Source: a virus. Taken from it: a DNA stretch of 32,882 nt. The stretch lies in IMG/VR virus record IMGVR_UViG_3300033172_000008; one strand, given 5' to 3'. Below the pieces are notes generated by a model. The model searched no databases. It was given only the letters and a program-made list of their open reading frames with translations, and had not been told where the DNA came from. The position numbers and the translations under genes are program-made. Below, in pieces: positions 4,334-32,882 of the stretch. How positions within the stretch are numbered: position 1 is the first letter of the stretch; every line of letters begins with the position of its first letter.

Positions 4334-5632
4334 CTATAGGCGTTCCATTGTGTTTCGGCCACTACTTCTTTGTAAATATTCAATCAAATATCGAATAGCA
4401 TCTGCCGGGTGGTCTAATATTCCATCCTTGACATATACTTCTTTCCCCCTCTCGAAGACCAAATTACGAAACATCTCAATGACCTTGGGGCAGTCTTCAG
4501 TAACGAATAGAGAAACCTCTCCCAACTCATTGAGTATTCTCGCTCTCATCAACTGTATACCCGTGACGATGCGGTATCTGCGAGTACTAACAGCATAACC
4601 CCTGTCCATCATCCAAGTAGATTCATTCAACTTAGAAACGAAAGAATGACCAGCATCCCTCCCTATGTCCCTGCGTTGATTTCCTGCCACGTCACTTATA
4701 ATAGCCGTATAACCCTGAGACGGTTCATTCTCGATTAATTTAGCCAACACTTGAGGGGTGCCTTGATGAGCCAGAATATGCTCCTTGTATATTACCATAT
4801 CGTCCGTGACCCTATTGTGGGCTACCCAAACCATAGCGCAGTATTGAGCATATCCGGGGTCAATCGTTAAGTAGACATCCCAAGTTTCGTCTAATTTGAA
4901 ATCCTTAAGGATGTGTTTATTGTCGTCGAAGTCCGGGAACACCTGACCCTCGAACACAACACAATTTGCCATGTACTCCTGTTGGAAGTAGATGGGGTCG
5001 GATTGTCTCTTGACCAACTCCCACTCATCCTCAGTCCACACATGGTAATTTTCATTGGATGGACCCTTGTGGCTCCACCAACCCCCCTCATGCTGTTGTC
5101 CCAATTCAAATTTCTTCCACACCCAGTTACGACCTCGGGGAGTGGAAATCATTATGACTGTACCCCTACGGTCTCTTATACATGGCGAAATGTACATTTC
5201 CCATATCTGTTCTGGCAGGGTTGCGGCTTCGTCTACAATCACCAAATCAAATCCATCACCCAGTAGGGAATCGGGGTTATCCGCTGACCCTAATTCGAGG
5301 GTTGAACCCCAAGCCGTTTCCATTCTCATTTCACCCTTAAGGATGCTGATGTCCGTGCCAAACAATTTAATAACATCTACCAATAGGTAACGCCAAAGCT
5401 TCTTGGCTAATTTGTATGTCTTGCTCACACATAGAATCTTACAGTCGGCTTCCATTAAGGCATAACAGGCCGGAATGGATGCAATCTTTGTCTTACCATA
5501 TCTACGACCCGCCAGCACACAGATGAAACGCTCGTTGCAGAACGCTTCGAGAATCTTGGCTTGACCCGGATGTGGGTGGAAATTAAGCTTCCGTATGAGG
5601 GCTTGCAGGGCTTTCTGGTTCTTCCGTAGCAT
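4334..5632 (-). CDS. terL: Terminase large subunit
   Basis: Walker A-like AGRRYGKT, Walker B plus catalytic Glu LVIVDEAA, and a C-terminal RNaseH-like nuclease segment (YLTIDPGY). 432 aa. Confidence 0.9.
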   Translation of the reverse strand: MLRKNQKALQALIRKLNFHPHPGQAKILEAFCNERFICVLAGRRYGKTKIASIPACYALMEADCKILCVSKTYKLAKKLWRYLLVDVIKLFGTDISILKGEMRMETAWGSTLELGSADNPDSLLGDGFDLVIVDEAATLPEQIWEMYISPCIRDRRGTVIMISTPRGRNWVWKKFELGQQHEGGWWSHKGPSNENYHVWTEDEWELVKRQSDPIYFQQEYMANCVVFEGQVFPDFDDNKHILKDFKLDETWDVYLTIDPGYAQYCAMVWVAHNRVTDDMVIYKEHILAHQGTPQVLAKLIENEPSQGYTAIISDVAGNQRRDIGRDAGHSFVSKLNESTWMMDRGYAVSTRRYRIVTGIQLMRARILNELGEVSLFVTEDCPKVIEMFRNLVFERGKEVYVKDGILDHPADAIRYLIEYLQRSSGRNTMERL

Positions 5633-6251: not shown

Positions 6252-7202
6252 TCAGACGACCCATTCAATTGTAACTCTCTGTAGTTTACTGAGGTCGGCT
6301 GAGTCCAATATTCTAATTCTACCTGTTCCTGTAGACGCTCCATCATATTTAGTTCCACTCGTGCCAGTTTCACCGTTGGCTTTGGCGATTACAAACTCAT
6401 CAGCGTCTAAACCTTCGACTGTTACGGTAATGTCAGCATCGGTTTGTTCTTTCCATGTGAGAACATCAATAGGTGTGGAATCAGATACAACACACTCGAC
6501 TCGATAGGTAATGGTTCCATCGTTGGTGTAAATTACAAAGTCACCTGTGTAAGTTCCTGCTGTTCCAGTATTTGTGAGATTGACAGTTACTTGACCACTT
6601 GCCCCGGATGCCAACGAAGTGGGGAATGCGGTGTAGGTAAACCCAGTAGGGGCAGTAACCCTATAGATATTCAAAGCAGTTGGTCCATCATTTTCAATTT
6701 GTATTGTACCGAATGAACTCTCCCCAACATATATGGTACCCAAATTTAGACCTATAACAGCTTCGGGCTCTCCGGCAATGAGGTTCTGTATCTCATATTC
6801 AAAAGTCTGTGAAACTGAATAGATATTACTCTCATCAGGCCCAGTGTATGTTTCGCCTACCCACATGGGGGTCCTACGAATAGAACCATAGAGGGTTGAC
6901 CTGAGTAAATTAGATTTGCTTAAATGACCATAGGAGAGCAAGGTTTCGTGGACGGAACCCATCTTGGCAGTACTGTCAAGGTTAATGGTGACATCCACCT
7001 GCATCTTATCAACATACGCACTTCCGGTTTCGTAAGTTAGGACATCATTCACTACAGATATATTCACCCATGAAGTCCCGGCATTTGCGGGTCTCCAAAA
7101 CTGATTCCCCGCTGGCACTATGTTGATGACTGTGGGGAAGCCAGATATGGACCCCAAATAGGTCTGCATGTTGGTCATCAAATCCCATTGTGGATTAGGC
7201 AC
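6252..7202 (-). CDS. Structural protein: tail-terminator-like N-domain fused to Ig-like C-terminal domain(s)
   Basis: 316 aa with a GTG start and GGAGG 5 nt upstream. The N-terminal ~140 aa resemble the tail-terminator/DUF4128-like pattern. The C-terminal Thr/Gly-rich beta-type segment (SGASGQVTVNLTNTGTAGTYTGDF) is typical of Ig-like/ASH-type domains. Confidence 0.55.
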   Translation of the reverse strand: MPNPQWDLMTNMQTYLGSISGFPTVINIVPAGNQFWRPANAGTSWVNISVVNDVLTYETGSAYVDKMQVDVTINLDSTAKMGSVHETLLSYGHLSKSNLLRSTLYGSIRRTPMWVGETYTGPDESNIYSVSQTFEYEIQNLIAGEPEAVIGLNLGTIYVGESSFGTIQIENDGPTALNIYRVTAPTGFTYTAFPTSLASGASGQVTVNLTNTGTAGTYTGDFVIYTNDGTITYRVECVVSDSTPIDVLTWKEQTDADITVTVEGLDADEFVIAKANGETGTSGTKYDGASTGTGRIRILDSADLSKLQRVTIEWVV

Positions 7203-7225: not shown

Positions 7226-7301
7226 TGGTGGAGATGGTGGCAATCGAAGCCACGACATCCTGCTTGCAAAACAGGTACTCTTCCAACTGAGTTACATCCC
7301 C
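7226..7301 (-). tRNA. tRNA-Ala (anticodon UGC), CCA encoded
   Basis: Hand-folded cloverleaf: acceptor GGGGATG/CATCTCC with a G3:U70 pair and A73; D arm ACTC-AGTTGGAA-GAGT; anticodon arm CCTGT-TTTGCAA-GCAGG; variable loop ATGTC; T arm GTGGC-TTCGATT-GCCAC; then ACCA. 76 nt. Confidence 0.88.
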
Positions 7302-7388: not shown

Positions 7389-8141
7389 TTATTCTTCCTT
7401 GTCTTCGTCTGTGGTCGTGTTAAGGTTCCATGGGTCTTCATCGTTGATTCGGTCAAGTAGTTCCGTCAAAGGACTCTTTTCTTTGTTAAATTGTATGGTA
7501 TCTACTTTACCGAAGTCATTAGGGAATCGTCGTTCCAAAATAAACATTGTGCTGCGCGCTCGGGCTGATTCATTGTTGCCCTCAATTGCCAATTTGTTCA
7601 GGTTGTCAATCATCTTCATCTTGTATTCATGTTCGGCCAAGTCAGCCATTTCCTGAAGTTCAGGTAATTTAGCCAAGGTTTTAATCAATGTTTCATGCTT
7701 GCATTTGATGGCTCGGGTTACGTCTCTCATGCGTCCACCATTACTTAGTACCTCCACCATTGTAGGTACCCACTTACGATAGTTGTATGCTAAATTAAAC
7801 ATGTTTAAATTACCCGTTTTAATACCCATTAATTTGTTAAGGTATATTCTCCTATTGTAATCTTTCAGATTCATGGTAGGCTCTTTCAACCATTTCCATT
7901 CCAAATATCTGTATTCATCCTGAAGGTCAATCAATTTGTCCCGACCTAATTTATCATAGTTACGTAACCAAGCTTTCTTACTCCACCGAATAGTGCCCTT
8001 GATTATATTGACATCTTCCATAGGGATTGCCCACGGACCTTCTAAAGCAATACCTATCCACTCGATGCAACCCATTTGGTCGGGATTTTTACCATAGTGT
8101 ACAGCCGGGTCTTCTTCACATTCAAATCTCTTAATTTCCAT
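7389..8141 (-). CDS. Putative small terminase subunit / DNA-binding protein
   Basis: 250 aa. The C-terminal half has an HTH-like stretch (GGRMRDVTRAIKCKHETLIKTL) and the FILERRFPNDFGK motif common near the C-terminus of small terminases. Strong RBS GGAGG. Confidence 0.45.
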   Translation of the reverse strand: MEIKRFECEEDPAVHYGKNPDQMGCIEWIGIALEGPWAIPMEDVNIIKGTIRWSKKAWLRNYDKLGRDKLIDLQDEYRYLEWKWLKEPTMNLKDYNRRIYLNKLMGIKTGNLNMFNLAYNYRKWVPTMVEVLSNGGRMRDVTRAIKCKHETLIKTLAKLPELQEMADLAEHEYKMKMIDNLNKLAIEGNNESARARSTMFILERRFPNDFGKVDTIQFNKEKSPLTELLDRINDEDPWNLNTTTDEDKEE

Positions 8142-9106: not shown

Positions 9107-9571
9107 TTAGTTGTTCCTTTCTATAAGCTCTTGAATGCCATAGTGTATTCGCGATTTCACGGTTCCAAGAGGCAAATCCAACATGGTGGCAATGTCCTGT
9201 AGGGAATAACCCTGAGACCAAGGCACTATGACGGCTCTCTTTTTCTCATCCAACTGTGCAACGAGCTTATTGTATATCATATAATTCTGTACATCTATTT
9301 CGTTGCCAGAATCCTCTTGAAATACTTCCGGTAAGGAAACCTCCACCCCCGCCTTTCGATTGATTCTGGCCCAGTTATTCTTCATTAAAATAAAGAGCCA
9401 ACCGAAGAACTTACCTCTCTCCGGTTGATATTGTGATTCATATTGCAAAGCCCTCAACACACACTCGCCAACCAAATCAGATGCATCCTCCGAGTTACCG
9501 TTGGTTATGTTCATTGCAATTTGGAGCAGTCGGTCATAGCCAACTTCAATTTCTTCTCGAAGGGTCATCAT
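9107..9571 (-). CDS. ECF-type (group IV) sigma-70 family sigma factor
   Basis: 154 aa with only a region-2-like N-domain and a region-4 HTH (YSLQDIATMLDLPLGTVKSRIHYG). Size and two-domain layout are typical of ECF sigmas. Confidence 0.8.
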   Translation of the reverse strand: MMTLREEIEVGYDRLLQIAMNITNGNSEDASDLVGECVLRALQYESQYQPERGKFFGWLFILMKNNWARINRKAGVEVSLPEVFQEDSGNEIDVQNYMIYNKLVAQLDEKKRAVIVPWSQGYSLQDIATMLDLPLGTVKSRIHYGIQELIERNN

Positions 9572-10884: not shown

Positions 10885-11434
10885 GAGTTTACCCCCATTT
10901 GTATTGACATAGGTGAATCAATAATAGGACAAATTAGACCGAGCTGGCCCTATCTGGCTCTTGATTATAACGCCTTTAGGCGTTGAGAACCCTATGGTCT
11001 TTTGCGACCGAAGGGAGCCCTCTTCATAGGAGGTTCACATAGAGTAAATTACACCTCACTTGCCTTCGCCTACGGCTCGGCTGGAAATAGGGTAAAGTTA
11101 TATTAAACATATAACATTTGGGGTCTGGAATCCACTCATTCTTCTTCATAGGGTAATGGGAGGGGAAACCCCCATAGGGTCAGTTTCATGACCTTTCAAT
11201 GTTGTATTTACATTCATTACATTTTCATCTTCATTACTCCATTCTATCTTCATCTTGATTTATGGGAGACCCCGAAAGGGATTCTTGGTGGAGGTGCCGT
11301 ATTAACACTATACTTAAATGTATTTAAGGGTATTAGTATATATTCGGGGTGTGGAAGTTGTTGGTACCTATGGAGAAAAAAGAGGTGACCATAGACTAAT
11401 GACCTATGTGAAATTTGCATACTGGTCAAGTTGG

Positions 11435-11452
11435 TGTTGTCAGATAGTATAT
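11435..11452 (+). repeat. 18-mer TGTTGTCAGATAGTATAT (copy A)
   Basis: 17/18 identical to 11480-11497. A third TGTTGTCA lies at 11527-11534. Spacing is 45-47 bp. Confidence 0.85.
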
Positions 11453-11479
11453 GCCCTATAGATTGTCACGCAATGTGAG

Positions 11480-11497
11480 TGTTGTCAAATAGTATAT
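11480..11497 (+). repeat. 18-mer TGTTGTCAAATAGTATAT (copy B)
   Basis: 17/18 identical to 11435-11452. TTGTCA-N17-GATTAT is a possible sigma70-like promoter. Confidence 0.85.
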
Positions 11498-11516
11498 AGG
11501 GGTAGATTATTACACA

Positions 11517-11547
11517 ATGAACTTTTTGTTGTCATCTGGTCTATTAT
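11517..11547 (+). promoter_or_regulatory. Promoter-like element ATGAACT-N18-TATTAT upstream of the rightward operon
   Basis: ATGAACT ttttgttgtcatctggtc TATTAT. The -10 ends 24 nt before the ATG at 11572. Confidence 0.55.
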
Positions 11548-11571
11548 AGGGTGTAAACAGAAAGGTGTCCT

Positions 11572-11970
11572 ATGAAATATGAAATTCACTCTGATGATGT
11601 ACTCCGGACTTTGGCTCACAAAATGGTCTCCGAATTAACCGAGATGTCCTATTCCATAAACTACATTCGGAAGTTGATGACGTGGGGTGGTCTAATTTAC
11701 GCCACAGAACTTTTAGGTGATGACAGACTGGGTGAATTCAAGGAGGTGTGGTTCCAATTCCTGAATCGTTGGACGGATGAATACCACATAGATATATACT
11801 GTAGGCTGAAGAAACTTGGCAGGGTCCGCTCCTACTCGGATGCAAGTGACTACTTCGATTTCCTGCCTAATTTTGACCAAGCATTGTTTGCCCTATCGGA
11901 GCTAATTCAAGGGGAGACTTCGTTTTGCAGGTGGAGGAATAGCCTACTTGACAATAGAAAGAAAAAGTAG
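11572..11970 (+). CDS. Hypothetical protein (first rightward gene)
   Basis: 132-aa ORF with RBS AAAGG. No motif recognised. Confidence 0.6.
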   Translation: MKYEIHSDDVLRTLAHKMVSELTEMSYSINYIRKLMTWGGLIYATELLGDDRLGEFKEVWFQFLNRWTDEYHIDIYCRLKKLGRVRSYSDASDYFDFLPNFDQALFALSELIQGETSFCRWRNSLLDNRKKK

Positions 11971-11986
11971 TATAGTCTCCCTGTCC

Positions 11987-12039
11987 AAATCGTCATGGGA
12001 GACCCTCGATTTTGATATAGAGAATAGTAACCGAGATTT
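11987..12039 (+). repeat. 53-bp upstream element R1 (50/53 identical to R2)
   Basis: AAATCGTCATGGGAGACCCTCGATTTTGATATAGAG... It ends exactly 26 nt before the ATG at 12066. Confidence 0.9.
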
Positions 12040-12065
12040 TTTAAACTGAAACGAAAGGATTCAAT

Positions 12066-12542
12066 ATGCTTAAGTACCAAACCATCAACTATGCAGACCT
12101 CATTCGAGAAATGAGGGAGAATGGCTGCTCCATGGCCGAGGTAGGATTTTTCATATCCCTTACCTTTCATCCGGCACCACACAGTTGTAAATTCAAATGG
12201 AGTAATGCTAAGATTAAAGCCGCCTACGGTGTAAGTGATTCAGCCTATATATGGAGGTTGAAGAAATCCCTATTGGAGAAGGGTTACTTGGTTGACTTGG
12301 GTGAGGGAGAATACAAGATTGACCGAGTAACTTTCTTCTCTGGGAATGCCACTCAGGAAGATGAAGAAGACCTGACCGTGATTGAATCTACCCGTAAGAC
12401 TTATGTCGTCCCCAAGGAGAAGGTTGAAATTAAACCTAAAGAAGAACCTAAACCAGCAGAACCCAAGCTGTCCGGTAAGGATGAATTCAATCGAATGCTC
12501 ACCGATATGGGACTGGGTAATACCAGTCTGATACAGAAGTAG
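12066..12542 (+). CDS. Hypothetical protein, possible winged-helix DNA-binding / replication-organiser-like
   Basis: 158 aa. The N-terminal ~90 aa look wHTH-like, followed by a Lys/Glu/Pro-rich linker. The functional call is weak. Confidence 0.55.
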   Translation: MLKYQTINYADLIREMRENGCSMAEVGFFISLTFHPAPHSCKFKWSNAKIKAAYGVSDSAYIWRLKKSLLEKGYLVDLGEGEYKIDRVTFFSGNATQEDEEDLTVIESTRKTYVVPKEKVEIKPKEEPKPAEPKLSGKDEFNRMLTDMGLGNTSLIQK

Positions 12543-12544
12543 TG

Positions 12545-12597
12545 AAATCGTCATGGGAGACCCTCGATTTTGATATAGAGTATTGTGACCGAGATTT
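12545..12597 (+). repeat. 53-bp upstream element R2
   Basis: The first 36 nt are identical to R1. It ends exactly 26 nt before the ATG at 12624. Confidence 0.9.
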
Positions 12598-12623
12598 GAA
12601 ACCAAAACCAAAGGAGTTTGATT

Positions 12624-12977
12624 ATGGAAACAACAAAATGGATGACCAGCGACGGCGAAGAACCCAGATACCACAGTGTGACCCGACCCATGGTGGAAGA
12701 GGTCGTGCAAAGACAACAAAATGAGTATGATATGGAAGGCATGATGTCCTGCCAAGAGATGACCGACACAATCATCCAACTCTTAGACCCTGACAATGTG
12801 TCCCGTGAGTTGTTAAGTGAAACCATAATGTATGGACTGGCAGTAGATAATGTAGCAAGATTTAACCCTATACCTGAATCTATTAATCTTATGCTCGAAA
12901 TTATTGAACTAATCATCAGTGATGTAGATGATGTTACATCCTTTTATTGCCTCAAAATCGAAAGTGAAAGTGAGTAA
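12624..12977 (+). CDS. Acidic hypothetical protein
   Basis: 117 aa from the ATG at 12624, with AAGGAG 7 nt upstream (the track starts at a TTG at 12618). Asp/Glu-rich. Confidence 0.6.
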   Translation: METTKWMTSDGEEPRYHSVTRPMVEEVVQRQQNEYDMEGMMSCQEMTDTIIQLLDPDNVSRELLSETIMYGLAVDNVARFNPIPESINLMLEIIELIISDVDDVTSFYCLKIESESE

Positions 12978-12980
12978 GAC

Positions 12981-13706
12981 ATGGCCACACTGTACGACAT
13001 TCATTCACCCGAGATGCAAGAACACCAAAGCCGCATCAAACACGCCGCCCACCTCACCGGGCCAGACTTCGACGCAGTAAGAAATCAATGTCCTAATTGT
13101 CATGGGACCTATCGAGTTATGATGGAAGATACAGAAGGTAATCCACTCGTGCGAGTTTGCGTATGTAAATTTTGGGTCATCCGCTTGAACTTCTATGGCC
13201 ACTACTGGGCCGGAACAGGTTCGATTGACTACAGTAGGCTGATTAAAATACCCCCCACCCCTAAGTCTCCGTATGTGATGTATGCCTGTGACAATCTCAC
13301 CTATGGTGATGGTTACAGTATAATCATGCACGGCATTGAGATGGGTATTTTCCAGCCGTTTATCAGAAGAAATAATAGGGCCTATCCGATTATACAGGAA
13401 CTCGCCATCAATGAAATTATCAGTGCCTACAAAGAGTCTGACTACACCATTGCACCATTCGTTTCTCCTTTGGGCGAAATTAGACGACTGTTCTTCTACA
13501 ATGGATTGAGTTTGAAGATTAAATCCGAGGCACATGGAGAATTGTGTGACCAAGCGTTGAGTGCTTGCCTTAAGCATCTCGTAGATAGTGACATCCCATC
13601 TTACTTGTATGCCGTTGTTAATCAATCAGATACAAGGTATTTTCCCCTCACCTTGCACCGTTTGTCTCAGGTCGGGGAAATTCACCTCGTTGAGAAATCA
13701 CACTAA
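12981..13706 (+). CDS. Hypothetical protein with N-terminal 4-Cys zinc ribbon
   Basis: 241 aa with CPNCHG...CVC near the N-terminus. No intact Walker A seen. Confidence 0.6.
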   Translation: MATLYDIHSPEMQEHQSRIKHAAHLTGPDFDAVRNQCPNCHGTYRVMMEDTEGNPLVRVCVCKFWVIRLNFYGHYWAGTGSIDYSRLIKIPPTPKSPYVMYACDNLTYGDGYSIIMHGIEMGIFQPFIRRNNRAYPIIQELAINEIISAYKESDYTIAPFVSPLGEIRRLFFYNGLSLKIKSEAHGELCDQALSACLKHLVDSDIPSYLYAVVNQSDTRYFPLTLHRLSQVGEIHLVEKSH

Positions 13707-13719
13707 AGGAATGGTGATT

Positions 13720-13938
13720 ATGTTGTACAAAGAAACATCTGAAAATGGCATGAGTAAAATACAGTTCAATTTGTCCATGTATTTGCCTGACCCTATTCGG
13801 CTTGGGCTGATAGATGGGGACGTTGAAGCTCGGGTTCACTTTCACAGGGTCGGGGCTAATGTCCACGCCCTGTTGGATTTGGCTCTCGAACAAATTGAGA
13901 GTAATACAATTGTTCCTATCGAAGACACCATGGATTAA
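13720..13938 (+). CDS. Hypothetical protein
   Basis: 72 aa from the ATG at 13720, with AAAGGA 9 nt upstream. The longer track ORF overlaps the preceding gene. Confidence 0.5.
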   Translation: MLYKETSENGMSKIQFNLSMYLPDPIRLGLIDGDVEARVHFHRVGANVHALLDLALEQIESNTIVPIEDTMD

Positions 13939-13943
13939 GGGAG

Positions 13944-14252
13944 ATGGTTATGATTGATAAATTAGACCCCCAGACTTGGGCCGAGAACGCAGTGCAGGTT
14001 ATAGCTTTGAGTATAAAGCAAGGCATGGATAAGAAAGGATTAACGGGTCACATTGAGTTATACATCAACACCACACTGGCTGAAGAAGCTGGATTGAAAA
14101 TAGGACATGTTATTGGTGGATACCCTATTACGAGAATTGAGAGAGATTGTCAGACAGAAATTCGTCGGTTGTGGGTGGCCGGATATTGCATTGCAAGTGA
14201 TGGACAACCCTATGGATTAGCCTTTGCAAATGAACATTGTTGGGGGGAGTAG
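13944..14252 (+). CDS. Hypothetical protein
   Basis: 102 aa. The GGGAG RBS favours either the ATG at 13944 or the one at 13950. Confidence 0.6.
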   Translation: MVMIDKLDPQTWAENAVQVIALSIKQGMDKKGLTGHIELYINTTLAEEAGLKIGHVIGGYPITRIERDCQTEIRRLWVAGYCIASDGQPYGLAFANEHCWGE

Positions 14253-14254
14253 GT

Positions 14255-14464
14255 ATGAAAATTAGACCTTACTTTGCTACAGAAAATACATTGAGAGAGT
14301 TAGTTGGTCAGGTTAATTTGACCAACCAACTCCTCAATGAAATAAGGCAGATGTTAGCAGATAAGAAAACACAAATTACACCTGAACAATTAATACAACA
14401 GCACGGGCTATGGGCTAAACAACGTGTGTTCACGACAGAATTAACCTCTTGGGAAAGGGAGTAA
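14255..14464 (+). CDS. Hypothetical protein
   Basis: 69 aa from the ATG at 14255, preceded by GGGGGAG. Confidence 0.55.
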   Translation: MKIRPYFATENTLRELVGQVNLTNQLLNEIRQMLADKKTQITPEQLIQQHGLWAKQRVFTTELTSWERE

Positions 14465-14467
14465 CCC

Positions 14468-15004
14468 ATGTTATATGTAATCACACCTGTGTCTCGACCC
14501 AACAATCTACTTAAGATTGCCGCGAGTGTACCTGAAGAGGTTAAGTGGTGCATCGTGTATGATGTTGGTATTAATGAAAATCCATTCATTGATGAAGAAT
14601 ATGCTGATTATATTTATAGAGCCGATAAAAAAAGTAGTTGGGGACACACCTGTCGCAACTACGCATTGGACCATTTACCCCTACAAGACGGAGATTGGCT
14701 TTATTATCTGGACGATGACAATATCTTTCATCCTGAATTGTTGAACATTAAGTTGGAAAATGAATATTCCTTTATTGCTATGTTGCAATCCTATCAGGGT
14801 AAGGTTCGCTTTCCCACTGTCGAAATTAAAAAAGGTAGATTAGATATGGGTGCATGTCTGTACAACTGGAAGTGGTGCAAGGATGAGCGTTGGACTGCGG
14901 AGTATGAACAAGACTTCAACTACACCAGTAGATGTTTACAACATGCCCCAGCTAAATCGTTGCCTATTGTAGCAAGCTACTACAATGCACTCAGATGGGA
15001 GTAA
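14468..15004 (+). CDS. GT-A-fold glycosyltransferase-like protein
   Basis: 178 aa. N-terminal beta-strand start (MLYVITPVSRP) and a DxD-type motif (YYLDDDN), typical of small GT-A enzymes. Confidence 0.5.
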   Translation: MLYVITPVSRPNNLLKIAASVPEEVKWCIVYDVGINENPFIDEEYADYIYRADKKSSWGHTCRNYALDHLPLQDGDWLYYLDDDNIFHPELLNIKLENEYSFIAMLQSYQGKVRFPTVEIKKGRLDMGACLYNWKWCKDERWTAEYEQDFNYTSRCLQHAPAKSLPIVASYYNALRWE

Positions 15005-15008
15005 GAGT

Positions 15009-15125
15009 ATGGCAGTAGTTAAAGAAATGGTAATCAAGGTCACGGTCAAACTTCCGTGGCAAGTGTATGCGGATGTGAGTGGAATAGTCGAAAGTTTAAT
15101 TTGGATTCTAATTTCAATTTTGTAA
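15009..15125 (+). CDS. Possible 38-aa peptide with hydrophobic C-terminus
   Basis: Hand-translated as MAVVKEMVIKVTVKLPWQVYADVSGIVESLIWILISIL. GGGAG lies 7 nt upstream. Confidence 0.3.
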   Translation: MAVVKEMVIKVTVKLPWQVYADVSGIVESLIWILISIL

Positions 15126-15148
15126 AGAATTAACCGACTGGGAAAATT

Positions 15149-16054
15149 ATGGCTAAGAAAATTGATTTAACTGGGCAGAAGTTTGGTAAACTGACCATAT
15201 TGGAAGAAGTGGGGCGAACAAAACAAGGCAAGGTCATTTGGAGATGTTTATGTGAGTGCGGAAATTTCGTAGATGTATCATCCATCAGTTTACGAAGTGG
15301 TAACACTCAATCTTGTGGTTGTTATAAACGAGAACAAACCTCCAAACGAAGTCGTATTGATTTAATAGGTCAGAAATTTGGCAGGTTAACCGTCCTTGAG
15401 GATGTAGGGAGGCAAAATAGAAAAGTGGTGTGGAGGTGTTTGTGTGACTGTGGTAACACGGTTAATGTTATAGGGCAGAGTTTACAGAACGGAAACACTA
15501 AATCTTGTAGTTGTATCCGAAATGAAAAAACATCCCAAAGGAGTTATATTAACTTAATTGGATGTGTTTTTGGGAAATTAACGGTTATTGAAGATGTAGG
15601 TCGAAGTAATTATGGTAAAGTTGTTTGGAAATGTCAATGTGAATGTGGTAATACTGTTGATGTAGTGGCGGGGAGTTTACAAAATGGTAGAACTCAATCC
15701 TGTGGTTGCTTACATAAAGAACTATTATCTGAAACTATGTTAGGTGAAAATAACCCCAGTTGGAGAGGTGGTATAACTCCATTAAATGAAGCCGTTAGAA
15801 ATTGTATTCACTATAAAGAGTGGCGAACTTCAATCTTTCAGAGAGATAATTTCACTTGCGTTCATTGTAATGATTCCACAGGTGGAAATTTAATAGCTCA
15901 CCACATCAAGTTCTTCTCGGATATTATGAAGGAGCATAACATCACTACCTTGGAGGAAGCAATTCAGTGCGAGGCTCTCTGGGATGTCTCGAATGGAATA
16001 ACCCTATGCAAGAAGTGCCACAAGAAAGAACACAAAAGAAAGGATTTATTATGA
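15149..16054 (+). CDS. HNH endonuclease with three tandem zinc-ribbon repeats (HNH-1)
   Basis: Three ~64-aa repeats (GQKFGxLTvLEdVGR...WrCxCxCGN...SCGC), then an HNH core (AHHIKFF...NGITLCKKCHKKEH). Paralogue of 31944-32642. Confidence 0.9.
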   Translation: MAKKIDLTGQKFGKLTILEEVGRTKQGKVIWRCLCECGNFVDVSSISLRSGNTQSCGCYKREQTSKRSRIDLIGQKFGRLTVLEDVGRQNRKVVWRCLCDCGNTVNVIGQSLQNGNTKSCSCIRNEKTSQRSYINLIGCVFGKLTVIEDVGRSNYGKVVWKCQCECGNTVDVVAGSLQNGRTQSCGCLHKELLSETMLGENNPSWRGGITPLNEAVRNCIHYKEWRTSIFQRDNFTCVHCNDSTGGNLIAHHIKFFSDIMKEHNITTLEEAIQCEALWDVSNGITLCKKCHKKEHKRKDLL

Positions 16055-17031
16055 GAAAGAATACCGTGTTAGTCATAGGCGACCTCATAGTGGACCTATA
16101 TCGGTTTGGAGAAGTAACTCGAATGTCTCCTGAGGCTCCTATTCCGGTTTTGCTGCACACGAAAGAAGAACGTAAATTGGGAGGGGCTGCAAATGTAGCT
16201 CTAAATTTAACCTCACTTGGCTGTAATGTAATCGTGGCGGGTACAGTAGGAGATGATGTCTATGGTGAATGGGTTGAGAAGGAAATGAAAAATTTTGGAA
16301 TATCCACCGTACTGTTTCGAGACGAAAACCCCACCATTGTCAAGAGACGTTTTGTTGCTGGGGGCCATCAGATATTGCGCGAAGATGTGGAAAAAGTGGA
16401 GGAATCTTCCAAATTGGAAAAGGTTAAATTGGCTGGCATTCGGAGGATTCTGACTGCACACCCACCTTTAAGTGCTGTTGTAATAAGTGATTATGCAAAA
16501 GGGATGTTGAATGGCAACCTGATAAGGGAAATTAAAGAAACTTGCTGGACGTTGAACATCCCAATTTTCGTTGACCCCAAACCAATTCACATGTCTGCCT
16601 ATTGGGGCGTAAATTTTATCAAATTAAATGTCGTGGATTTGATTTCAATTTTTCCGATGTGGAAAGGTGAGGTAGAACCCTACCTGCGAAAGCTTCAGTC
16701 CGAATACATTGACACCGCCAACGCTTATGACACCACATCTGCTTATCCGGGCATTTGGGCATACACTCAAATCATCTGCACTCAAGCTGAGAGGGGTTGT
16801 ATGTATCTGGGTAACAACGGAGTATATAGGGTACCAGCTAATGTCGTGGATGTGGTTGATGTTACCGGAGCCGGAGATGTTTTCCTTGCTGTTTTTGTGG
16901 CCCAAATGCTAAATTACACCTCTGTGGACCGAGCCTTGAGGTTGGCAAATGAAGCTGCCACTGAGAGTTGTAAATTTCGTGGTACTTGGGTCATCCCTAA
17001 GGATTCCAAATATTCAATCAAGAAAGGGTAA
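16051..17031 (+). CDS. hldA: D-glycero-beta-D-manno-heptose-7-phosphate kinase-like (RfaE domain I / HldA family, PfkB fold)
   Basis: Start set at the ATG at 16051 (ATGA overlap with the HNH stop). Motifs match the N-domain of E. coli HldE: VIGDLIVDLY..G...RMSPEAPIPV, GGAANVALNLTSLG, SDYAKG, DPKP, DVTGAGD. Confidence 0.8.
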   Translation: MRKNTVLVIGDLIVDLYRFGEVTRMSPEAPIPVLLHTKEERKLGGAANVALNLTSLGCNVIVAGTVGDDVYGEWVEKEMKNFGISTVLFRDENPTIVKRRFVAGGHQILREDVEKVEESSKLEKVKLAGIRRILTAHPPLSAVVISDYAKGMLNGNLIREIKETCWTLNIPIFVDPKPIHMSAYWGVNFIKLNVVDLISIFPMWKGEVEPYLRKLQSEYIDTANAYDTTSAYPGIWAYTQIICTQAERGCMYLGNNGVYRVPANVVDVVDVTGAGDVFLAVFVAQMLNYTSVDRALRLANEAATESCKFRGTWVIPKDSKYSIKKG

Positions 17032-17034
17032 ATT

Positions 17035-17712
17035 ATGAACATAGTATATGGGTTGCTCACAGGGTCGGGTCGCACTGAACAGGCCCGAGAAATCATTAAA
17101 GCTTGGCATGATGTAAGAATATCCGTGTGGTTGTACACTTGGGATGAACATGACCTTAAAACATTAGGGCCTTTGTGTGACCATGTTTTGTTTGGCCCTA
17201 TGGATTCCTTTGTTATTAATCACAACCGATTGGCCCGGGAATTAGACTGGGACATTTACATTTGTGGAGCAAATGATTTATATCCGGGAACTAATCCTTT
17301 CCTACGAGAGAACTTACTTGATTTGTATGAGAGCTACCCGGATAAGAGTTACTTCATCAATGACGGTTGGCAGAATAGGATTCCGTCTCACCCTATTGTA
17401 CCCCGCCAGTGGTGGTTGAACAGGGATAAGGTTATTCTGGATGAACAATATGAGCATAATTTTGTAGATGATGATTTTTTGGCTGAAGGTCGGGTTAAGG
17501 GAGACATCATTCGTTGCACGGACATCTGCCTCGACCATAGGCAATTTACCCGGATGGGACAACCTGCGGATTTCATTGCACAAAAAGGACAGGAAAGTTT
17601 TGAACGAGACAGAGCCCGGTTCGAAATGAAGTGGAATCCTAAACCTGATAACCCCTACCCTACTGTGTCTCTCGGTTCACTTCATAGTGATTACATCGTT
17701 AGGAAGGTGTAA
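17035..17712 (+). CDS. Hypothetical protein linked to the sugar-kinase gene (possible GT-like)
   Basis: 225 aa. Acidic clusters (GANDLYP, FVDDDF) weakly resemble GT-A motifs. No confident assignment. Confidence 0.55.
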   Translation: MNIVYGLLTGSGRTEQAREIIKAWHDVRISVWLYTWDEHDLKTLGPLCDHVLFGPMDSFVINHNRLARELDWDIYICGANDLYPGTNPFLRENLLDLYESYPDKSYFINDGWQNRIPSHPIVPRQWWLNRDKVILDEQYEHNFVDDDFLAEGRVKGDIIRCTDICLDHRQFTRMGQPADFIAQKGQESFERDRARFEMKWNPKPDNPYPTVSLGSLHSDYIVRKV

Positions 17713-17718
17713 GAACAT

Positions 17719-18192
17719 ATGGGAAGAATAACCAATACATCACCCCAGACTTTCGAGTTCTTCGCTTGTGGCCTGAAATATGTATTAAATCATAATGAAT
17801 CTCAGGAGATTGATAGTCTAACTAAGTTGGAGTGGAACTTCCTACAGTCACCCACCATTACCCGGACTGGCACCTTCAAATTCAAGGTCAAGAAGAACGG
17901 GAAGTACTTTGACAGTGGTTCTACCGTGGATGGTAATGTTGGGGCTGTGCCAGTGGCGGCACAAGTGATTAGGGAACATCCTCCCAAATCAGCAGTTAAA
18001 TATGGGAAGGTAAAGACTGAATTAGACTTATATGAAGACTTCCTTAGGTCTCAACCTGACCCCCCAGCATATATAGCCAAGACCTATCTGAAGAAGGAAT
18101 TGGTTGCCATATGCAAAAGCGTTCAACTCAAACCAGTAGGGTCTAAATTAGACCTTGCTAAATTACTTTGGGCCTTCATCATAGAGTGGTAG
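17719..18192 (+). CDS. Hypothetical protein with C-terminal SAP/HeH-like DNA-binding motif
   Basis: 157 aa. The C-terminus LKKELVAICKSVQLKPVGSKLDLAKLL fits the SAP helix-extended-helix pattern. Confidence 0.55.
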   Translation: MGRITNTSPQTFEFFACGLKYVLNHNESQEIDSLTKLEWNFLQSPTITRTGTFKFKVKKNGKYFDSGSTVDGNVGAVPVAAQVIREHPPKSAVKYGKVKTELDLYEDFLRSQPDPPAYIAKTYLKKELVAICKSVQLKPVGSKLDLAKLLWAFIIEW

Positions 18193-18221
18193 TTGACATG
18201 TGGTCTATGGTGTGTTATATT
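18193..18221 (+). promoter_or_regulatory. Near-consensus sigma70 promoter (TTGACA-N17-TATATT with TGn extension)
   Basis: TTGACA at 18193-18198, a 17-nt spacer ending in TGT, and TATATT at 18216-18221. It lies 40 nt upstream of the lipoprotein ATG. Confidence 0.7.
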
Positions 18222-18260
18222 AACCGTGTTGGAAGAAACACTAACTGAAAGGGGTATGAG

Positions 18261-18689
18261 ATGAAGAAGATTGCTGGAACAAACGTGGTATGGGGAAGCC
18301 TGATAGGATTGGTTGTCATATTCCTACTGGCTGTTGTGTGTGGTTGTGGAAACCCAACCGAACCTGCTGTCCCCTATGTTGTGGAAATTGAAATTTGGGG
18401 TAATGAACCGGACGACCTCTATCTGCTTGAGATGAACTTCTACGAAGAGTGGGGTTCAATAGGTTGGATTTGTGGATTCGATGACTACTACGCATCCCTT
18501 CCATATACCTACACTACAACAGTATATGATGCCCATCGTTGTGTTATCCGTATGGTAGGTAGTAGTACTCCATGGAATGAAATTCAATATACCGCCCTCA
18601 TCAATGGGGAGGAACCTGAGACTATGAATGTGGGAGAAGTTACATATCCATCAGGTACAAGGTATATTGTAGTTTCAATTAATTGGTAA
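18261..18689 (+). CDS. Putative lipoprotein / signal-anchored protein (moron)
   Basis: 142 aa. N-terminal signal peptide with a Cys-containing lipobox-like VVCGCG. It has its own promoter and terminator. Confidence 0.6.
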   Translation: MKKIAGTNVVWGSLIGLVVIFLLAVVCGCGNPTEPAVPYVVEIEIWGNEPDDLYLLEMNFYEEWGSIGWICGFDDYYASLPYTYTTTVYDAHRCVIRMVGSSTPWNEIQYTALINGEEPETMNVGEVTYPSGTRYIVVSINW

Positions 18690-18708
18690 ATTAGACCTCT
18701 GTGAAATG

Positions 18709-18738
18709 GAAAGACCACCCGTAATAAGGTGGTCTTTC
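18709..18738. terminator. Bidirectional rho-independent terminator at the convergence of the two gene blocks
   Basis: GAAAGACCACC-cgtaataa-GGTGGTCTTTC (11-bp stem), followed by CTCTTTATT on the plus strand. Confidence 0.8.
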
Positions 18739-18755
18739 TCTTTATTGGATTATGA

Positions 18756-25834: not shown

Positions 25835-26905
25835 CTATTTATCAATTGGTTGCCATGGGTCAGGAATACCATAAGTCTTAATGTAATAACCACTTTTAGC
25901 TGGAGTTGTTCCGGTGGCGGTCATAATCATCTTGACTTTCTGAGTTGCTTCATTCCCCATGTTAGGATTACAACTTGGTACATCTACAATTTTGCCTGTG
26001 AAGTATATATCAGTTTGAGCAAATACAGTTCCAAAGGAGCCTCCATATTCATTAAATTCTGGACCCTGTATACGAACCATGAATGTACCTAAGGTACTAA
26101 CGGGGGTAACGGAAGTTCCCAAACCATCAATGTATACGAAGCGAGAATAAAAATTCTCATCAACCCAAACATCCATTTCCAACGTGGCCTCAAATACTCC
26201 CAAGGTAAAGCCTATAGGTTGTTTGCTTGATGGTCCAAATTGAGTCTGAATGTTATTACTGGATGTAATCTTGAAGCTGGCAGGGTGAAATCGTGTTCCA
26301 TTCCATGAACATGAAATTCCCGGAGCTTGATAGTAATGTCTCTGGTAGGATGTGTCGGAAGCAAATACCACCCCGGACACAGAAGAGTTGGGGGTAACAT
26401 TCTGGCTGTAGAATGTGGGAGTCAACATAACAGGTTGACCCACTTTCCAATCTACAACTAATTTATTCATGATGCACTTCTCAAACACATAAGCCCTACC
26501 TAAGCCCAGACCAATGTCTCGGGCAATAGTGAATCCACCCAAGGTTCCCGGTTGACCTGAGTAAGGGAAATGGTAATCCCAGCCAGGTTCAGGAGGAGTA
26601 GGACAAGAAGATTCCGCATTTTGAAAATGTGAATTCAGCAACCTATTCAATGTCTTCTGCCAGTTGTCTGCATCAAACCAAAAAGGAGTAGCACCTAAGG
26701 CACCCTGAGGTTGGACCTTAAGTATTCTAAGGTCTTCTTGGCGATGGAACCTATTTCCCAACACAGACCGGGCGTATGGAACAGCACCAACGGATAGGGA
26801 ATCCGGTTGGTCACTACACCAACGGAACCCGGAAGTTCCCAGTGTACCCAACGGTCTTTCCCATGCCAAGTTAATACTGTTCTGCCATCCGGCGATTATT
26901 GCCAT
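25835..26905 (-). CDS. Tail tube protein, paralogue 2
   Basis: 356 aa. Shares blocks with 26917-27921: GALGAxP, LNxHFQ, GQPxMxTPTF, QAPxIS..WNG....PASF.IxSxNN. Confidence 0.65.
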   Translation of the reverse strand: MAIIAGWQNSINLAWERPLGTLGTSGFRWCSDQPDSLSVGAVPYARSVLGNRFHRQEDLRILKVQPQGALGATPFWFDADNWQKTLNRLLNSHFQNAESSCPTPPEPGWDYHFPYSGQPGTLGGFTIARDIGLGLGRAYVFEKCIMNKLVVDWKVGQPVMLTPTFYSQNVTPNSSVSGVVFASDTSYQRHYYQAPGISCSWNGTRFHPASFKITSSNNIQTQFGPSSKQPIGFTLGVFEATLEMDVWVDENFYSRFVYIDGLGTSVTPVSTLGTFMVRIQGPEFNEYGGSFGTVFAQTDIYFTGKIVDVPSCNPNMGNEATQKVKMIMTATGTTPAKSGYYIKTYGIPDPWQPIDK

Positions 26906-26916
26906 TAGGTAACTCC

Positions 26917-27921
26917 TTAGCCCAGAAGACTATCTACATCTTGTGTTAAGGTAAGCACTGGAAGAGAAGTATCAGCCATAACCCTAAGGTTAATGGTGTC
27001 AACCAAATCACCAGTATTAGCATTCAAATCGTTGGGAGCTTCAACTCTGCAATACGCAGTGTAGGTCATGGTTACAGCCGCAGACCCACCCAATGTTCCA
27101 TAGGATGTGTCCATTGTAGCAGTAATCACAACAGTACCCAGTGAGTTGTTATAAAATGGGGCTACCCAATCAGTATCCGCATTTTCATTTCTCCACACAC
27201 TCAATTCGATATTGCCTGAGTAGTCGCCTACTACGAAGCCTTTACGACCCTTGGCATCCCCAGCCTGTTTGTCCGGGGTGTTGTTCCTCGAAGAGATGGT
27301 GAAGCTTGCGGGGTAAATTTCGCTTCCATTCCATTGAACGGAAATGTTAGGGGCTTGAAGGTATCCACCAGCGGAAGGAGTAGGAATTGATTCAGGCATG
27401 GTCCCGGCATTGCTGGATTCCATGGCCTTGAAGGTAGGGGTGAACATTATAGGCTGACCGGATTCCCAAGCAATTTCCAGTTCGTCCACTATGCAACCAA
27501 GGTAGAGATGGGCCCGACTATCCACACCCGTGTCTTTCAACACAGACAGTGTAAACCAAGCGTCATCATCCAACCCAGAAGTAGGAGTGAATGTATAGGT
27601 GTAAGGGCTTGCGGTACCGGAAGTACCTACGGACTGAAAGTGAGCATTGAGGATGGACAGGAATTTAGCATCCGCTGTACCTAAGGCAATAGGGGCCGCA
27701 CCCAAAGCTCCACCCGGAAGATTTTGGCACTCTCTAAGACCTGAAGACAACTGACCTCTGGCACCCCTAAGTACCTTGATGTCAATTGGTTCTTCGCCAA
27801 AAGTTAGGGAGTCGCTTTCTTCGGAGTCCCACAGGAAGGCATAACTCGAAGTCTCAGTTCCCATTCCGGCTTCGGTCCCAAAAACGACACATGTTAAAAA
27901 CGAACTAATTGTTCTGGACAT
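26917..27921 (-). CDS. Tail tube protein, paralogue 1
   Basis: 334 aa, located between the neck proteins and the chaperones. Paralogous to 25835-26905. Confidence 0.65.
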   Translation of the reverse strand: MSRTISSFLTCVVFGTEAGMGTETSSYAFLWDSEESDSLTFGEEPIDIKVLRGARGQLSSGLRECQNLPGGALGAAPIALGTADAKFLSILNAHFQSVGTSGTASPYTYTFTPTSGLDDDAWFTLSVLKDTGVDSRAHLYLGCIVDELEIAWESGQPIMFTPTFKAMESSNAGTMPESIPTPSAGGYLQAPNISVQWNGSEIYPASFTISSRNNTPDKQAGDAKGRKGFVVGDYSGNIELSVWRNENADTDWVAPFYNNSLGTVVITATMDTSYGTLGGSAAVTMTYTAYCRVEAPNDLNANTGDLVDTINLRVMADTSLPVLTLTQDVDSLLG

Positions 27922-27934
27922 GATTTAACCTCTC

Positions 27935-28420
27935 TTATTCCAAAATTTTGCGTATCAAGTACGCTTCGATTTCTTTACGTATTAATTTGATGTTTGCTTC
28001 GGAAAAACCCGTTATGATGTTCTTCCACTTATCTGCCGCCACCTGAGCTATTGTCCTATTACGGTCACCCTTAGGTCCAACCTTAACACTGGTGTCAGTA
28101 ATTTCAGCTGCATAGGATTTCCTCAATTCTTCAGTGTCAGTCAATCTTATCTTGTCTGATGTTACCTTTTCACCGGATGGTCTGGTGTTATACTTCTTGG
28201 ACCACCTGCCCCCAAATTTAGTTTCCTCTGCATTGGATTTCCATTTGTGCCCATTGGCATCACTGCCTGTGGCGAAACGAAGTGCGACGAAATTTAACAT
28301 CATCTTTTCAATTTGCTTTATGACACCCTCTCGGATGTCCTTGCTATCAAAAGTCTTCTGAACTTTCTTCAGTGACTTAGGTAGGTCTCGGAAATTAATA
28401 GCTGGTAGTGAGGTAGCCAT
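27935..28420 (-). CDS. Head-tail joining / tail-completion protein (HK97 gp10 / Mu G-like pattern)
   Basis: 161 aa. RFATGSDANGHKWK...LTDTEELRKS resembles the virion-morphogenesis family pattern. Confidence 0.55.
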   Translation of the reverse strand: MATSLPAINFRDLPKSLKKVQKTFDSKDIREGVIKQIEKMMLNFVALRFATGSDANGHKWKSNAEETKFGGRWSKKYNTRPSGEKVTSDKIRLTDTEELRKSYAAEITDTSVKVGPKGDRNRTIAQVAADKWKNIITGFSEANIKLIRKEIEAYLIRKILE

Positions 28421-31867: not shown

Positions 31868-31916
31868 AAACACTCCCTCGTGTTGTATTCAAAAACCATG
31901 AATGAACTGTCACTCT

Positions 31917-31947
31917 ATAATAGTCAAAACCGACCTGATAGGTTCAT
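31917..31947 (-). promoter_or_regulatory. Promoter-like element ATGAACC-N18-TATTAT upstream of the GT cassette
   Basis: Minus strand reads ATGAACC tatcaggtcggttttgac TATTAT. Its -35 overlaps the HNH-2 stop codon. Confidence 0.5.
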
Positions 31948-32755: not shown

Positions 32756-32882
32756 CGAAGTGATTGTAGAGATTACTGACTGGAATAGATATTCCAAACT
32801 CTTCCGTTAGCGGTTCCATCAACAGGTCTGACCCATCCACCAACGCTGTACCAACCGATTTTGCCTGTCCGGCCAAAATCGT
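32756..32882. repeat. Terminal direct repeat, right copy (duplicates the 3' end of the capsid CDS)
   Basis: Identical to 1-127 when read base by base. 32773-32882 is a redundant partial copy of the capsid gene 3' end. Confidence 0.95.

Follow-up and report, generated by a model that had tools for sequence, protein, structure and literature searches.

What can a small phage gain from a single enzyme of a host sugar pathway? In the ADP-heptose pathway, GmhA reversibly isomerises sedoheptulose-7-phosphate and HldA, with ATP, gives heptose-1,7-bisphosphate; GmhB then removes the 7-phosphate, HldC adds AMP and HldD carries out an epimerisation. The question is raised by a viral DNA of 32,882 nucleotides (IMG/VR record IMGVR_UViG_3300033172_000008), analysed here over its whole length and called the window in the following, in which an open reading frame (ORF) of the + strand at positions 16051-17031 is predicted to encode an HldA-type kinase of 326 amino acids (aa). 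We found this kinase to be the only ADP-heptose pathway gene in the genome. We propose that an active HldA-type kinase would drive host sedoheptulose-7-phosphate into nucleoside diphosphate (NDP)-heptose for use by phage transferases, with virion proteins as the probable acceptors, a proposal whose chances of being right or wrong we regard as evenly balanced.

The identity of the kinase was examined at the level of motifs, profiles, structures and phylogeny. The five motifs quoted for this ORF in the initial annotation of the window are all in frame, at 16126-16140 (SPEAP), 16180-16200 (GGAANVA), 16486-16503 (SDYAKG), 16570-16581 (VDPK) and 16858-16878 (DVTGAGD); GGAANVA (residues 44-50) holds the GG sugar-binding motif near the N-terminus, and DVTGAGD (residues 270-276) holds the catalytic Asp and the anion hole. 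The protein matches the Pfam family PfkB (PF00294) at 98.8 bits (cutoff 25.8), with residues 5-312 aligned to profile positions 3-295 of 302. Among the NCBIfam models, the best score was obtained with TIGR02198 (rfaE_dom_I; 225.9 bits, E 6e-67), followed by whole HldE (162.8 bits), and the lead of TIGR02198 over ribokinase (61.7 bits) amounts to 164 bits. The closest solved structure is Burkholderia cenocepacia HldA (PDB 4e84, E 1e-34), the next being a fructokinase at 3e-12. A homologue search in 5.8 billion proteins gave 8,000 scored candidates, at least 7,991 of them with E <= 1e-10, and among the best 120 of these at least 7,991 homologues all the named ones are HldA or HldE (33-39% identity). 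Moreover, a simple neighbour-joining tree of 27 sequences, in which E. coli RbsK, PfkB, PsuK and FruK were the only outgroups, was built with the window kinase and with that of a sister phage, L001, a 33.5-kb Logan contig (SRR15669518_210544, 33,502 bp) that is syntenic with the window. Both phage kinases grouped with HldA/HldE and were split from RbsK, PfkB, PsuK and FruK in 300/300 bootstraps, so that the kinase stands in the HldA/HldE group and not with the ribokinase or fructokinase clades. The best profile and the bootstraps thus sustain the HldA/RfaE-I assignment made in the initial annotation: judged by its sequence, ORF 16051-17031 is a PfkB kinase of the HldA/RfaE domain I type, and homology makes heptose-7-phosphate its probable substrate.

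We then compared the window kinase with 119 HldA/HldE homologues of cellular and metagenomic origin and considered the 47 alignment columns that are at least 95% conserved. The window kinase keeps 44 of these near-invariant columns, among them GD..D, SPEAP of the lid motif SPEAPxP, GGAxN..N, T..K.R (T95/K98/R100), R.D.E (R110/D112/E114), DYxKG, DxK, N193 of the ribokinase-family NxxE motif, the Mg2+/phosphate site, and DVxGAGD. In the other three columns, Leu192 stands in place of Pro, Asp196 in place of Glu and Val277 in place of Thr; the residues replaced at 192 and 277 are 97-99% conserved in the homologues. An insertion of ∼15 aa is common to the window kinase and its sister, and the sister kinase keeps 42 of the 47 columns, both alleles being full-length.

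The absence of the rest of the pathway can only be judged on a complete genome. Positions 1-127 of the window recur exactly at 32756-32882; this repeat looks like an overlap that arose in assembling a genome that is circular or has terminal redundancy, and it indicates that the window is a closed genome with a unique length of about 32,755 bp. The absence of pathway partners is therefore real at the sensitivity of the searches made. When E. coli GmhA, GmhB and the adenylyltransferase domain of HldE were compared with all six frames by tblastn (E <= 1), the single match obtained was one of GmhB, at 11656-11850, which was rejected as chance level (E 0.095; outside the DxDGT motif and within a 132-aa ORF that is unrelated). 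No match in the window reached E <= 0.01 when HldD, WaaC and WaaF of E. coli were the tblastn queries. In 71 ORFs of at least 60 aa, namely the 31 main genes and 40 others, Pfam scans recognised no SIS, HAD, CTP_transf_like or NTP_transferase domain, and the motifs DxDGT, HxGH and GxGxR occurred only in short shadow-frame stretches. All three approaches bear out, for the whole closed genome, the earlier observation that GmhA, GmhB and HldC are not encoded.

A viral kinase of this type that stands alone is, however, less rare than the initial annotation implied. We obtained at least 575 confirmed matches in IMG/VR and considered the gene context of the best 80 loci with 8-kb flanks. HldC adjoins the kinase in 46 of these 80 loci, usually together with HldD, and GmhA, GmhB and HldC are all absent within 8 kb in 32 of them, many of the latter contigs being fragments of large genomes. 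Cyanomyophages, too, carry annotated HldA-like kinases. The genes found around the lone kinases differ from locus to locus and include tandem T4-type portals with a DNA ligase, a baseplate hub and a primase-helicase. The viral kinases most similar to ours (loci L023-L027, L031, L032, L036, L037 and L044) have a conserved gene order, in which two tandem T4-type portal (gp20-like) paralogues of ∼535 aa each are followed by the HldA-like kinase and then by genes for an ATP-dependent DNA ligase and a clamp-loader-like AAA+ protein; it is uncommon for a portal gene to be duplicated. The window thus offers chiefly one more divergent viral HldA-like kinase in a well-populated class, and its modest novelty lies in a small closed genome where the kinase is the sole pathway gene and stands among four transferase-type genes.

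These four genes and the kinase occupy ∼4.2 kb of 32.8 kb, or ∼13% of the genome, and none of the four has relatives in isolated phages. Two of them lie by the capsid gene on the - strand, where the order over the circular junction is the major head gene, a second HNH endonuclease gene (31944-32642, 232 aa), a gene for a glycosyltransferase (GT) of family GT2, a GT9-like gene, two further genes and the tail genes. The two further genes (28420-29178 and 29192-29896) gave no matches in Pfam, PHROGs or the PDB. The GT2-family enzyme (31133-31873, 246 aa), predicted to be of GT-A type, matches Glyco_tranf_2_4 (2e-9) and Glycos_transf_2 (1.4e-7). In the PDB, the sequences closest to it are those of SunS and ThuS, which are S-glycosyltransferases, and of GmaR, which glycosylates flagellin; the acceptors of all three are peptides or proteins.

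The GT9-like protein (29877-31133, - strand, 418 aa, predicted GT-B type), which lies in the structural operon, matches the Pfam family Glyco_transf_9 (PF01075) with 26.6 bits against a gathering cutoff of 22. The GT9 label that this gene had first received is thus upheld by a score above the cutoff, but over residues 245-281 only, a stretch of 37 aa. Its C-terminal nucleotide-sugar motif DTGVSHLA, which lies in this stretch, aligns with DTGLSHLT of WaaC, and its N-terminal RYGGIGDALF resembles the KxSxxGD motif of GT9 enzymes. The NCBIfam models for heptosyltransferase I (TIGR02193; E 4e-6, C-terminal part) and heptosyltransferase III (TIGR02201; E 2.6e-4, residues 6-58, which include the N-terminal motif) gave 26 bits against a cutoff of 185 and 20 bits against a cutoff of 170, respectively, so the match to characterised heptosyltransferases (WaaC, WaaF, WaaQ) stays below equivalog level. 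In a PDB search, WaaC was the only heptosyltransferase to appear (E 0.56).

The other two transferase-type genes flank the kinase locus on the + strand. The first encodes a protein of 178 aa (14468-15004) with the motifs ITPVSRP and LDDDN, both of which are invariant among its 16 relatives; D82, D83 and D84 are invariant in the 17 family members. An AlphaFold2 (AF2) model built from the 17-sequence alignment reached a predicted local distance difference test score (pLDDT) of 95.3 and a predicted template modelling score (pTM) of 0.91. In Foldseek searches of the PDB this model matched AvpGT (5e-9), then WrtF, GlcAT-S and TarP, and in BFVD it matched viral GT-A/GT2 proteins with values down to 2.5e-12. 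In addition, the family profile matches the GT43 GlcAT 1v82 (E 0.0016), whereas the same-fold nucleotidyltransferases TarI and IspD match the model 4-5 orders of magnitude worse than the transferases do. On this model we regard it as certain that the predicted fold is that of a GT-A glycosyltransferase, and the GT-A-like character given to this gene in the beginning is confirmed by the AF2 model and Foldseek.

The second flanking gene encodes a 225-aa protein of the alpha/beta type (17035-17712, + strand), which gave no direct match in Pfam, PHROGs or NCBIfam, and a word-indexed search with it recovered only the protein itself. An exhaustive HMMER search, by contrast, found 37 relatives with the consensus IPTGxR ... 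YTWD ... ICGADDLWPG ... THPIITR ... FDExFxHNxCDTDL ... FDHRH; in the proteins of the window and of the sister phage, Asn takes the place of the first Asp in the DD motif (ADD to AND). Two distant relatives, P0167 and P0169 (E 3e-7 and 1.6e-5, respectively, against the 225-aa protein), match Pfam Glycos_transf_2 (PF00535) at ∼1e-7 over the homologous region, so that the link of the 225-aa protein to GT2 is transitive and passes through these two proteins. One other family member is fused to an S-adenosylmethionine (SAM) methyltransferase. The single-sequence AF2 model was poor (pLDDT 46) and its Foldseek matches were generic and not significant; the family profile found nothing in the PDB, and hhalign comparisons with the 178-aa family and with the GT2 protein of the window were not significant either. 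This ORF had been left unassigned in the initial annotation, and the Glycos_transf_2 matches of the distant relatives now extend its description to that of a protein that is probably a second small GT-A/GT2-like glycosyltransferase.

In 14 IMG/VR loci (L002-L015) and one locus from the JGI metagenomes (L103), the 225-aa family gene is found between portal and capsid genes. The typical order there is a terminase gene, a P22-type portal gene (∼665 aa), the family gene and a capsid gene, and the neighbours include GT2 enzymes, SAM methyltransferases, LicD, sulfotransferase, radical-SAM/SPASM proteins, IspD and cytidylyltransferase. Taken by themselves, these loci look like an undescribed glycan or polymer-decoration cassette of phage head modules. 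We also considered whether the 225-aa or the 178-aa protein could be a sugar-1-phosphate nucleotidyltransferase that replaces HldC. This was provisionally rejected, because the proteins have acidic DD/DDD motifs and a helix right after the N-terminal motif, as in GT2 enzymes, and because the 178-aa model fits transferases far better than TarI or IspD.

The kinase locus is part of a + strand block that runs from 11188 to 18689, and every ORF that the initial annotation had placed at this locus is present there. The 178-aa gene is followed by a conserved hydrophobic ORF of 38 aa (15009-15125), which is called as a gene in L001 (9873-9989), then by a free-standing HNH homing endonuclease gene (15149-16054, 301 aa), the kinase gene, the 225-aa gene, a gene for a 157-aa protein (17719-18192) and a gene for a predicted lipoprotein (18261-18689, 142 aa), the last of the block. 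The endonuclease, which had been named as a neighbour of the kinase, is recognised by both Pfam (HNH_2) and PHROGs (PHROG 374, E 5e-67). The genes are tightly packed: the kinase ATG at 16051 overlaps the HNH stop codon (ATGA), and the 225-aa gene begins 4 bp beyond the kinase stop codon. The 157-aa protein, 81% identical in the sister phage, has a C-terminal SAP-like motif (Pfam SAP_new25, E 1e-5, slightly under the cutoff), and the lipoprotein has a signal peptide and a Cys-containing lipobox-like N-terminus; there is a promoter-like site at 18193-18221. A terminator-like 12-bp stem-loop (18708-18739) separates the block from the convergent tail genes. The two HNH endonucleases are paralogues (60% identical) and carry three (15149-16054) or two (31944-32642) N-terminal repeats of ∼62 aa with CxC..C motifs. 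Each of the two HNH genes directly adjoins a glycosylation gene, the kinase in one case and the GT2 gene in the other.

The sister phage L001 throws some light on the history of the locus. Most proteins common to the window and L001 are 75-98% identical, and the two that flank the kinase locus reach 89% (225-aa protein) and 81% (178-aa protein), whereas the kinases are only 56% identical. At the DNA level, identity falls to 52-62% in the kinase core (16180-16830 versus L001 10130-10780) against 80-92% in the flanks, and the last ∼60 kinase codons are nearly identical again. This pattern suggests allele replacement, mosaicism or very fast divergence of the core. A simple co-conversion gradient from the HNH site was set aside, identity being lowest in the gene core and not at the junction. 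L001 has no HNH gene at this locus and its kinase comes directly after the 38-aa ORF, which indicates that the endonuclease is a recent insertion, placed exactly between the 38-aa ORF and the ribosome-binding site of the kinase. The fact that such diverged alleles are both full-length and keep the catalytic residues points to purifying selection on kinase function. The fastest-diverging shared gene is that of the lipoprotein (49% identity). A third, more distant relative (L018) has the 178-aa GT-A gene without a kinase nearby.

How could a lone kinase be of use to such a genome? GT9 enzymes are mainly heptosyltransferases, classically of the lipopolysaccharide (LPS) core, and the family uses ADP-heptose. 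Encoding no isomerase, phosphatase, nucleotidyltransferase or epimerase, the phage would depend on its host for GmhA, GmhB and HldC, which a Gram-negative-type host would supply; such reliance is normal for one step, that of the phosphatase, and unusual for the nucleotidyltransferase. During infection, the phage kinase would phosphorylate heptose-7-phosphate, its presumed substrate. Since this is the first irreversible step, one extra kinase would be the cheapest pull that a 33-kb genome could exert on sedoheptulose-7-phosphate and so on pentose-phosphate carbon, provided that the other enzymes come from the host. The resulting NDP-heptose would be used by the phage set of GT9-like, GT2 and the two small GT-A proteins flanking the kinase, with the GT9-like enzyme as the obvious consumer because its family uses ADP-heptose. 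We infer that the kinase feeds this enzyme from their presence in the same small genome and from GT9 enzymes being mainly heptosyltransferases. The most likely acceptors would be virion proteins, because the GT2 and GT9-like genes are in the structural operon between the major head and tail genes, because the relatives of the GT2 enzyme are protein-directed and because the 225-aa family is a head-module gene elsewhere. That the kinase, the GT9-like and GT2 enzymes and both small GT-A proteins form one system, which puts a heptose-containing glycan on capsid or tail proteins, seems to us doubtful as a complete picture.

Several observations weigh against the proposed role. The TIGR02198 score of the kinase is below the NCBI trusted cutoff of 345 bits and hence below equivalog level, which makes the kinase a divergent member of its family. 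The Glu of the NxxE motif, 100% conserved in the 119 homologues, is Asp196 in both phage kinases (codon 16636-16638 in the window); although the substitution is conservative, kinase catalysis or regulation may differ as a consequence. The GT9 assignment is made of short motif-level matches, and no GT9-like gene adjoins the viral kinases in the best 80 IMG/VR loci. Moreover, none of the 15 loci in which the 225-aa family lies between portal and capsid genes has an HldA-like kinase, and the presence of the 178-aa and 225-aa families in other phages without the kinase indicates that their coupling to it is not obligatory.

The same heptose-7-phosphate kinase could serve the cell surface instead of the virion, by boosting host NDP-heptose for a remodelling of the LPS core or of another surface glycan, as has been proposed for cyanomyophage LPS clusters; such remodelling could, for instance, block superinfection or keep progeny phage off debris. 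The classical role of GT9 enzymes as LPS-core heptosyltransferases, reflected in the NCBIfam matches, agrees with this, as do the annotated LPS-type clusters of P-SSM2 and S-CAM1, which have kinase, nucleotidyltransferase and isomerase genes, the listing of hldE/rfaE and heptosyltransferase I as phage auxiliary surface-modification genes in metagenomic surveys, and the lipoprotein gene that ends the + strand block. However, the location of the GT2 and GT9-like genes, within the operon of head and tail structural genes, is not a moron or lysogeny position, Pfam scans detected neither integrase nor repressor, the solved structures nearest to the GT2 enzyme are those of enzymes with peptide or protein acceptors, and the 225-aa family belongs to head modules elsewhere; we consider surface remodelling plausible but unlikely. 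A further possible acceptor is the phage DNA, onto which the kinase and the transferases would place heptose or another sugar at a modified base, as a means of restriction evasion. There is a precedent in the metagenomic phage cluster contig 53, whose kinase/phosphatase, cytidylyltransferase and GT-B enzyme attach one or two heptose residues to 5-hydroxymethylcytosine (5hmC); small phage GT-A enzymes with R...DDD... motifs, TarP/JGT-like, also glycosylate DNA, and some DNA-glycosylation clusters lie near structural genes (bioRxiv 10.1101/2023.12.21.572611). The 178-aa protein carries SRP...DDDN motifs and its fold matches include TarP, but the best of these matches act on small molecules, lipid-linked acceptors and protein glycans and not on DNA. 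In addition, Pfam recognised no C5-cytosine methyltransferase, TET/JBP-type dioxygenase or thymidylate-synthase-like hydroxymethylase in the 71 ORFs, so that no acceptor base would be made, and base-modifying families were likewise missing among 25 of the 41 matched families that neighbour the 225-aa family. DNA decoration is accordingly a very improbable role for these genes in our view.

Two other explanations concern the kinase itself. An HldA-clade enzyme may have drifted to another sugar phosphate, or its product, a sugar-1-phosphate or heptose bisphosphate, may go straight to the flanking GT-A-like proteins, with no nucleotide sugar in between. A score under the equivalog cutoff, changes at three near-invariant positions including NxxE to NxxD, and the 15-aa insertion common to the sister phage speak for such readings; moreover, no nucleotidyltransferase is encoded, and the 225-aa gene occupies the position held by HldC in 46 of the 80 viral kinase loci. 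Yet all the other columns conserved in the 119 homologues are kept, including SPEAP, T95/K98/R100 and R110/D112/E114, the named close homologues among the best 120 of at least 7,991 are all heptose kinases, and the 225-aa family appears to be GT2-type (helix after the N-terminal motif, DD motif, distant Pfam GT2 matches) and has no nucleotidyltransferase features, which leaves drift of the kinase, or direct use of its product, decidedly improbable. The kinase might finally be a passenger, that is, a captured host gene fragment that travels with the mobile HNH element, given that it directly adjoins a homing endonuclease and that its core looks mosaic or exchanged relative to the sister phage. 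But in L001 the kinase occupies this locus and no HNH gene accompanies it, the two highly diverged alleles are full-length with their catalytic residues kept, and the kinase is tightly packed in its operon, so we find a passenger role hardly credible.

The gene content of the window is that of a tailed phage, with the following proteins encoded on the - strand: a small terminase (7389-8141), a large terminase (4334-5632), a portal protein (2828-4318), a major head protein (18-998; PHROG 1357, E 9e-12), whose gene runs on into the terminal repeat, and two adjacent paralogous tail-tube-like proteins (25835-26905 and 26917-27921), for which both Pfam matches, to Phage_tube_2, are weak. A tRNA-Ala gene with anticodon TGC (7226-7301) has the small-terminase gene on one side and, on the other, the gene of a 316-aa protein (6252-7202) whose immunoglobulin-like domain is of the DUF1573/HYDIN type. 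The latter gene itself lies between the two terminase genes and may encode a decoration or adhesion protein. The genome also encodes an extracytoplasmic function (ECF)-type sigma-70 factor (9107-9571; Sigma70_r2 and r4), which is 98% identical in the sister phage and has a counterpart in L018. Over the full genome, neither Pfam nor PHROGs gave a match to a DNA polymerase, a primase/helicase, an integrase, a repressor or an endolysin. An endolysin of the Amidase_2 type is encoded by L018.

The genome represents a new phage lineage. Megablast found no DNA-level relatives in 50,697 GenBank phage records, and GenBank phages yielded no homologues of the GT9-like, 225-aa or portal proteins. Single-protein pattern searches of IMG/VR with the 225-aa protein, the GT9-like protein and the kinase gave no close relatives, and in the JGI metagenomes no close phage relative was found, a single distant locus having the 225-aa family. 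The large terminase subunit (TerL) is 27-28% identical to those of T5-like phages; in a search for the host, neither the single TerL sequence nor a two-phage alignment matched anything in 185,579 reference genomes.

The significance of the locus lies in a very small closed genome that retains, from a host pathway for an envelope sugar, a single step, the committed one that ATP drives. If the kinase and the four transferases do form one system for the virion, this phage would have the first heptosylated virion, its donor obtained by takeover of the host LPS-precursor pathway, and the first virion-glycosylation system outside mycobacteriophages with its own sugar-supply gene. A real link between kinase and transferases would also provide a compact model for the tapping of LPS-precursor pools by phages and for virion glycosylation in phages of Gram-negative-type hosts, which would affect immune or environmental recognition. 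The phage-specific change in NxxE, for its part, could point to altered regulation of the kinase.

Among characterised enzymes, HldA (4e84) and the kinase domain of E. coli HldE share with the window kinase the PfkB fold, at ∼29-39% identity over the full length, and the motifs GD..D, SPEAPxP, GGAANVA, T..K.R, R.D.E, SDYAKG, DPK and DVTGAGD. The window kinase differs in being phage-encoded and neither fused to nor adjoining an adenylyltransferase. With regard to the acceptor, AAH and TibC are GT9-type enzymes that O-heptosylate proteins with ADP-heptose. They provide a precedent for a GT9-type enzyme acting on protein and not on LPS, although the PDB search detected no specific sequence similarity between the GT9-like protein of the window and AAH/TibC. 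NDP-heptose serves protein heptosylation by AAH (PMC11461863). According to the same source, which summarises Tang et al. (2024, Science 385:678), viruses encode functional heptose enzymes, the kinase type included, typically without the phosphatase. The survey by Tang et al. was anchored on the nucleotidyltransferase, so the present genome, which has none, would have escaped it.

Contig 53 resembles the system proposed here in that phage sugar-activation gene(s) and a glycosyltransferase draw on the host heptose pool; it differs in using a HAD/APH-type bifunctional enzyme, a cytidylyltransferase and a T4-betaGT-like GT-B enzyme, and in needing 5hmC-forming enzymes, none of which are found here (bioRxiv 10.1101/2023.12.21.572611). 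In mycobacteriophages, as exemplified by Maravista of cluster F1 (PMC11256854), two GT genes lie by the capsid gene, and in the window two such genes are likewise found downstream of it. The GT families of the mycobacteriophages are unrelated to those of the window, no sugar-supply gene was reported there, and glycosylation in our case is deduced from the genes. A parallel for the kinase itself comes from the cyanomyophages P-SSM2, S-CAM1 and S-SSM7, which, like many IMG/VR contigs, encode an HldA-like kinase ∼29-31% identical to that of the window. The cyanomyophage kinase is beside HldC and often HldD, GmhA or GmhB, none of which the window encodes, in genomes of ∼175-250 kb against 33 kb here; unlike in the cyanomyophages, the kinase of the window lies between two small GT-A genes, the second of them a probable one.

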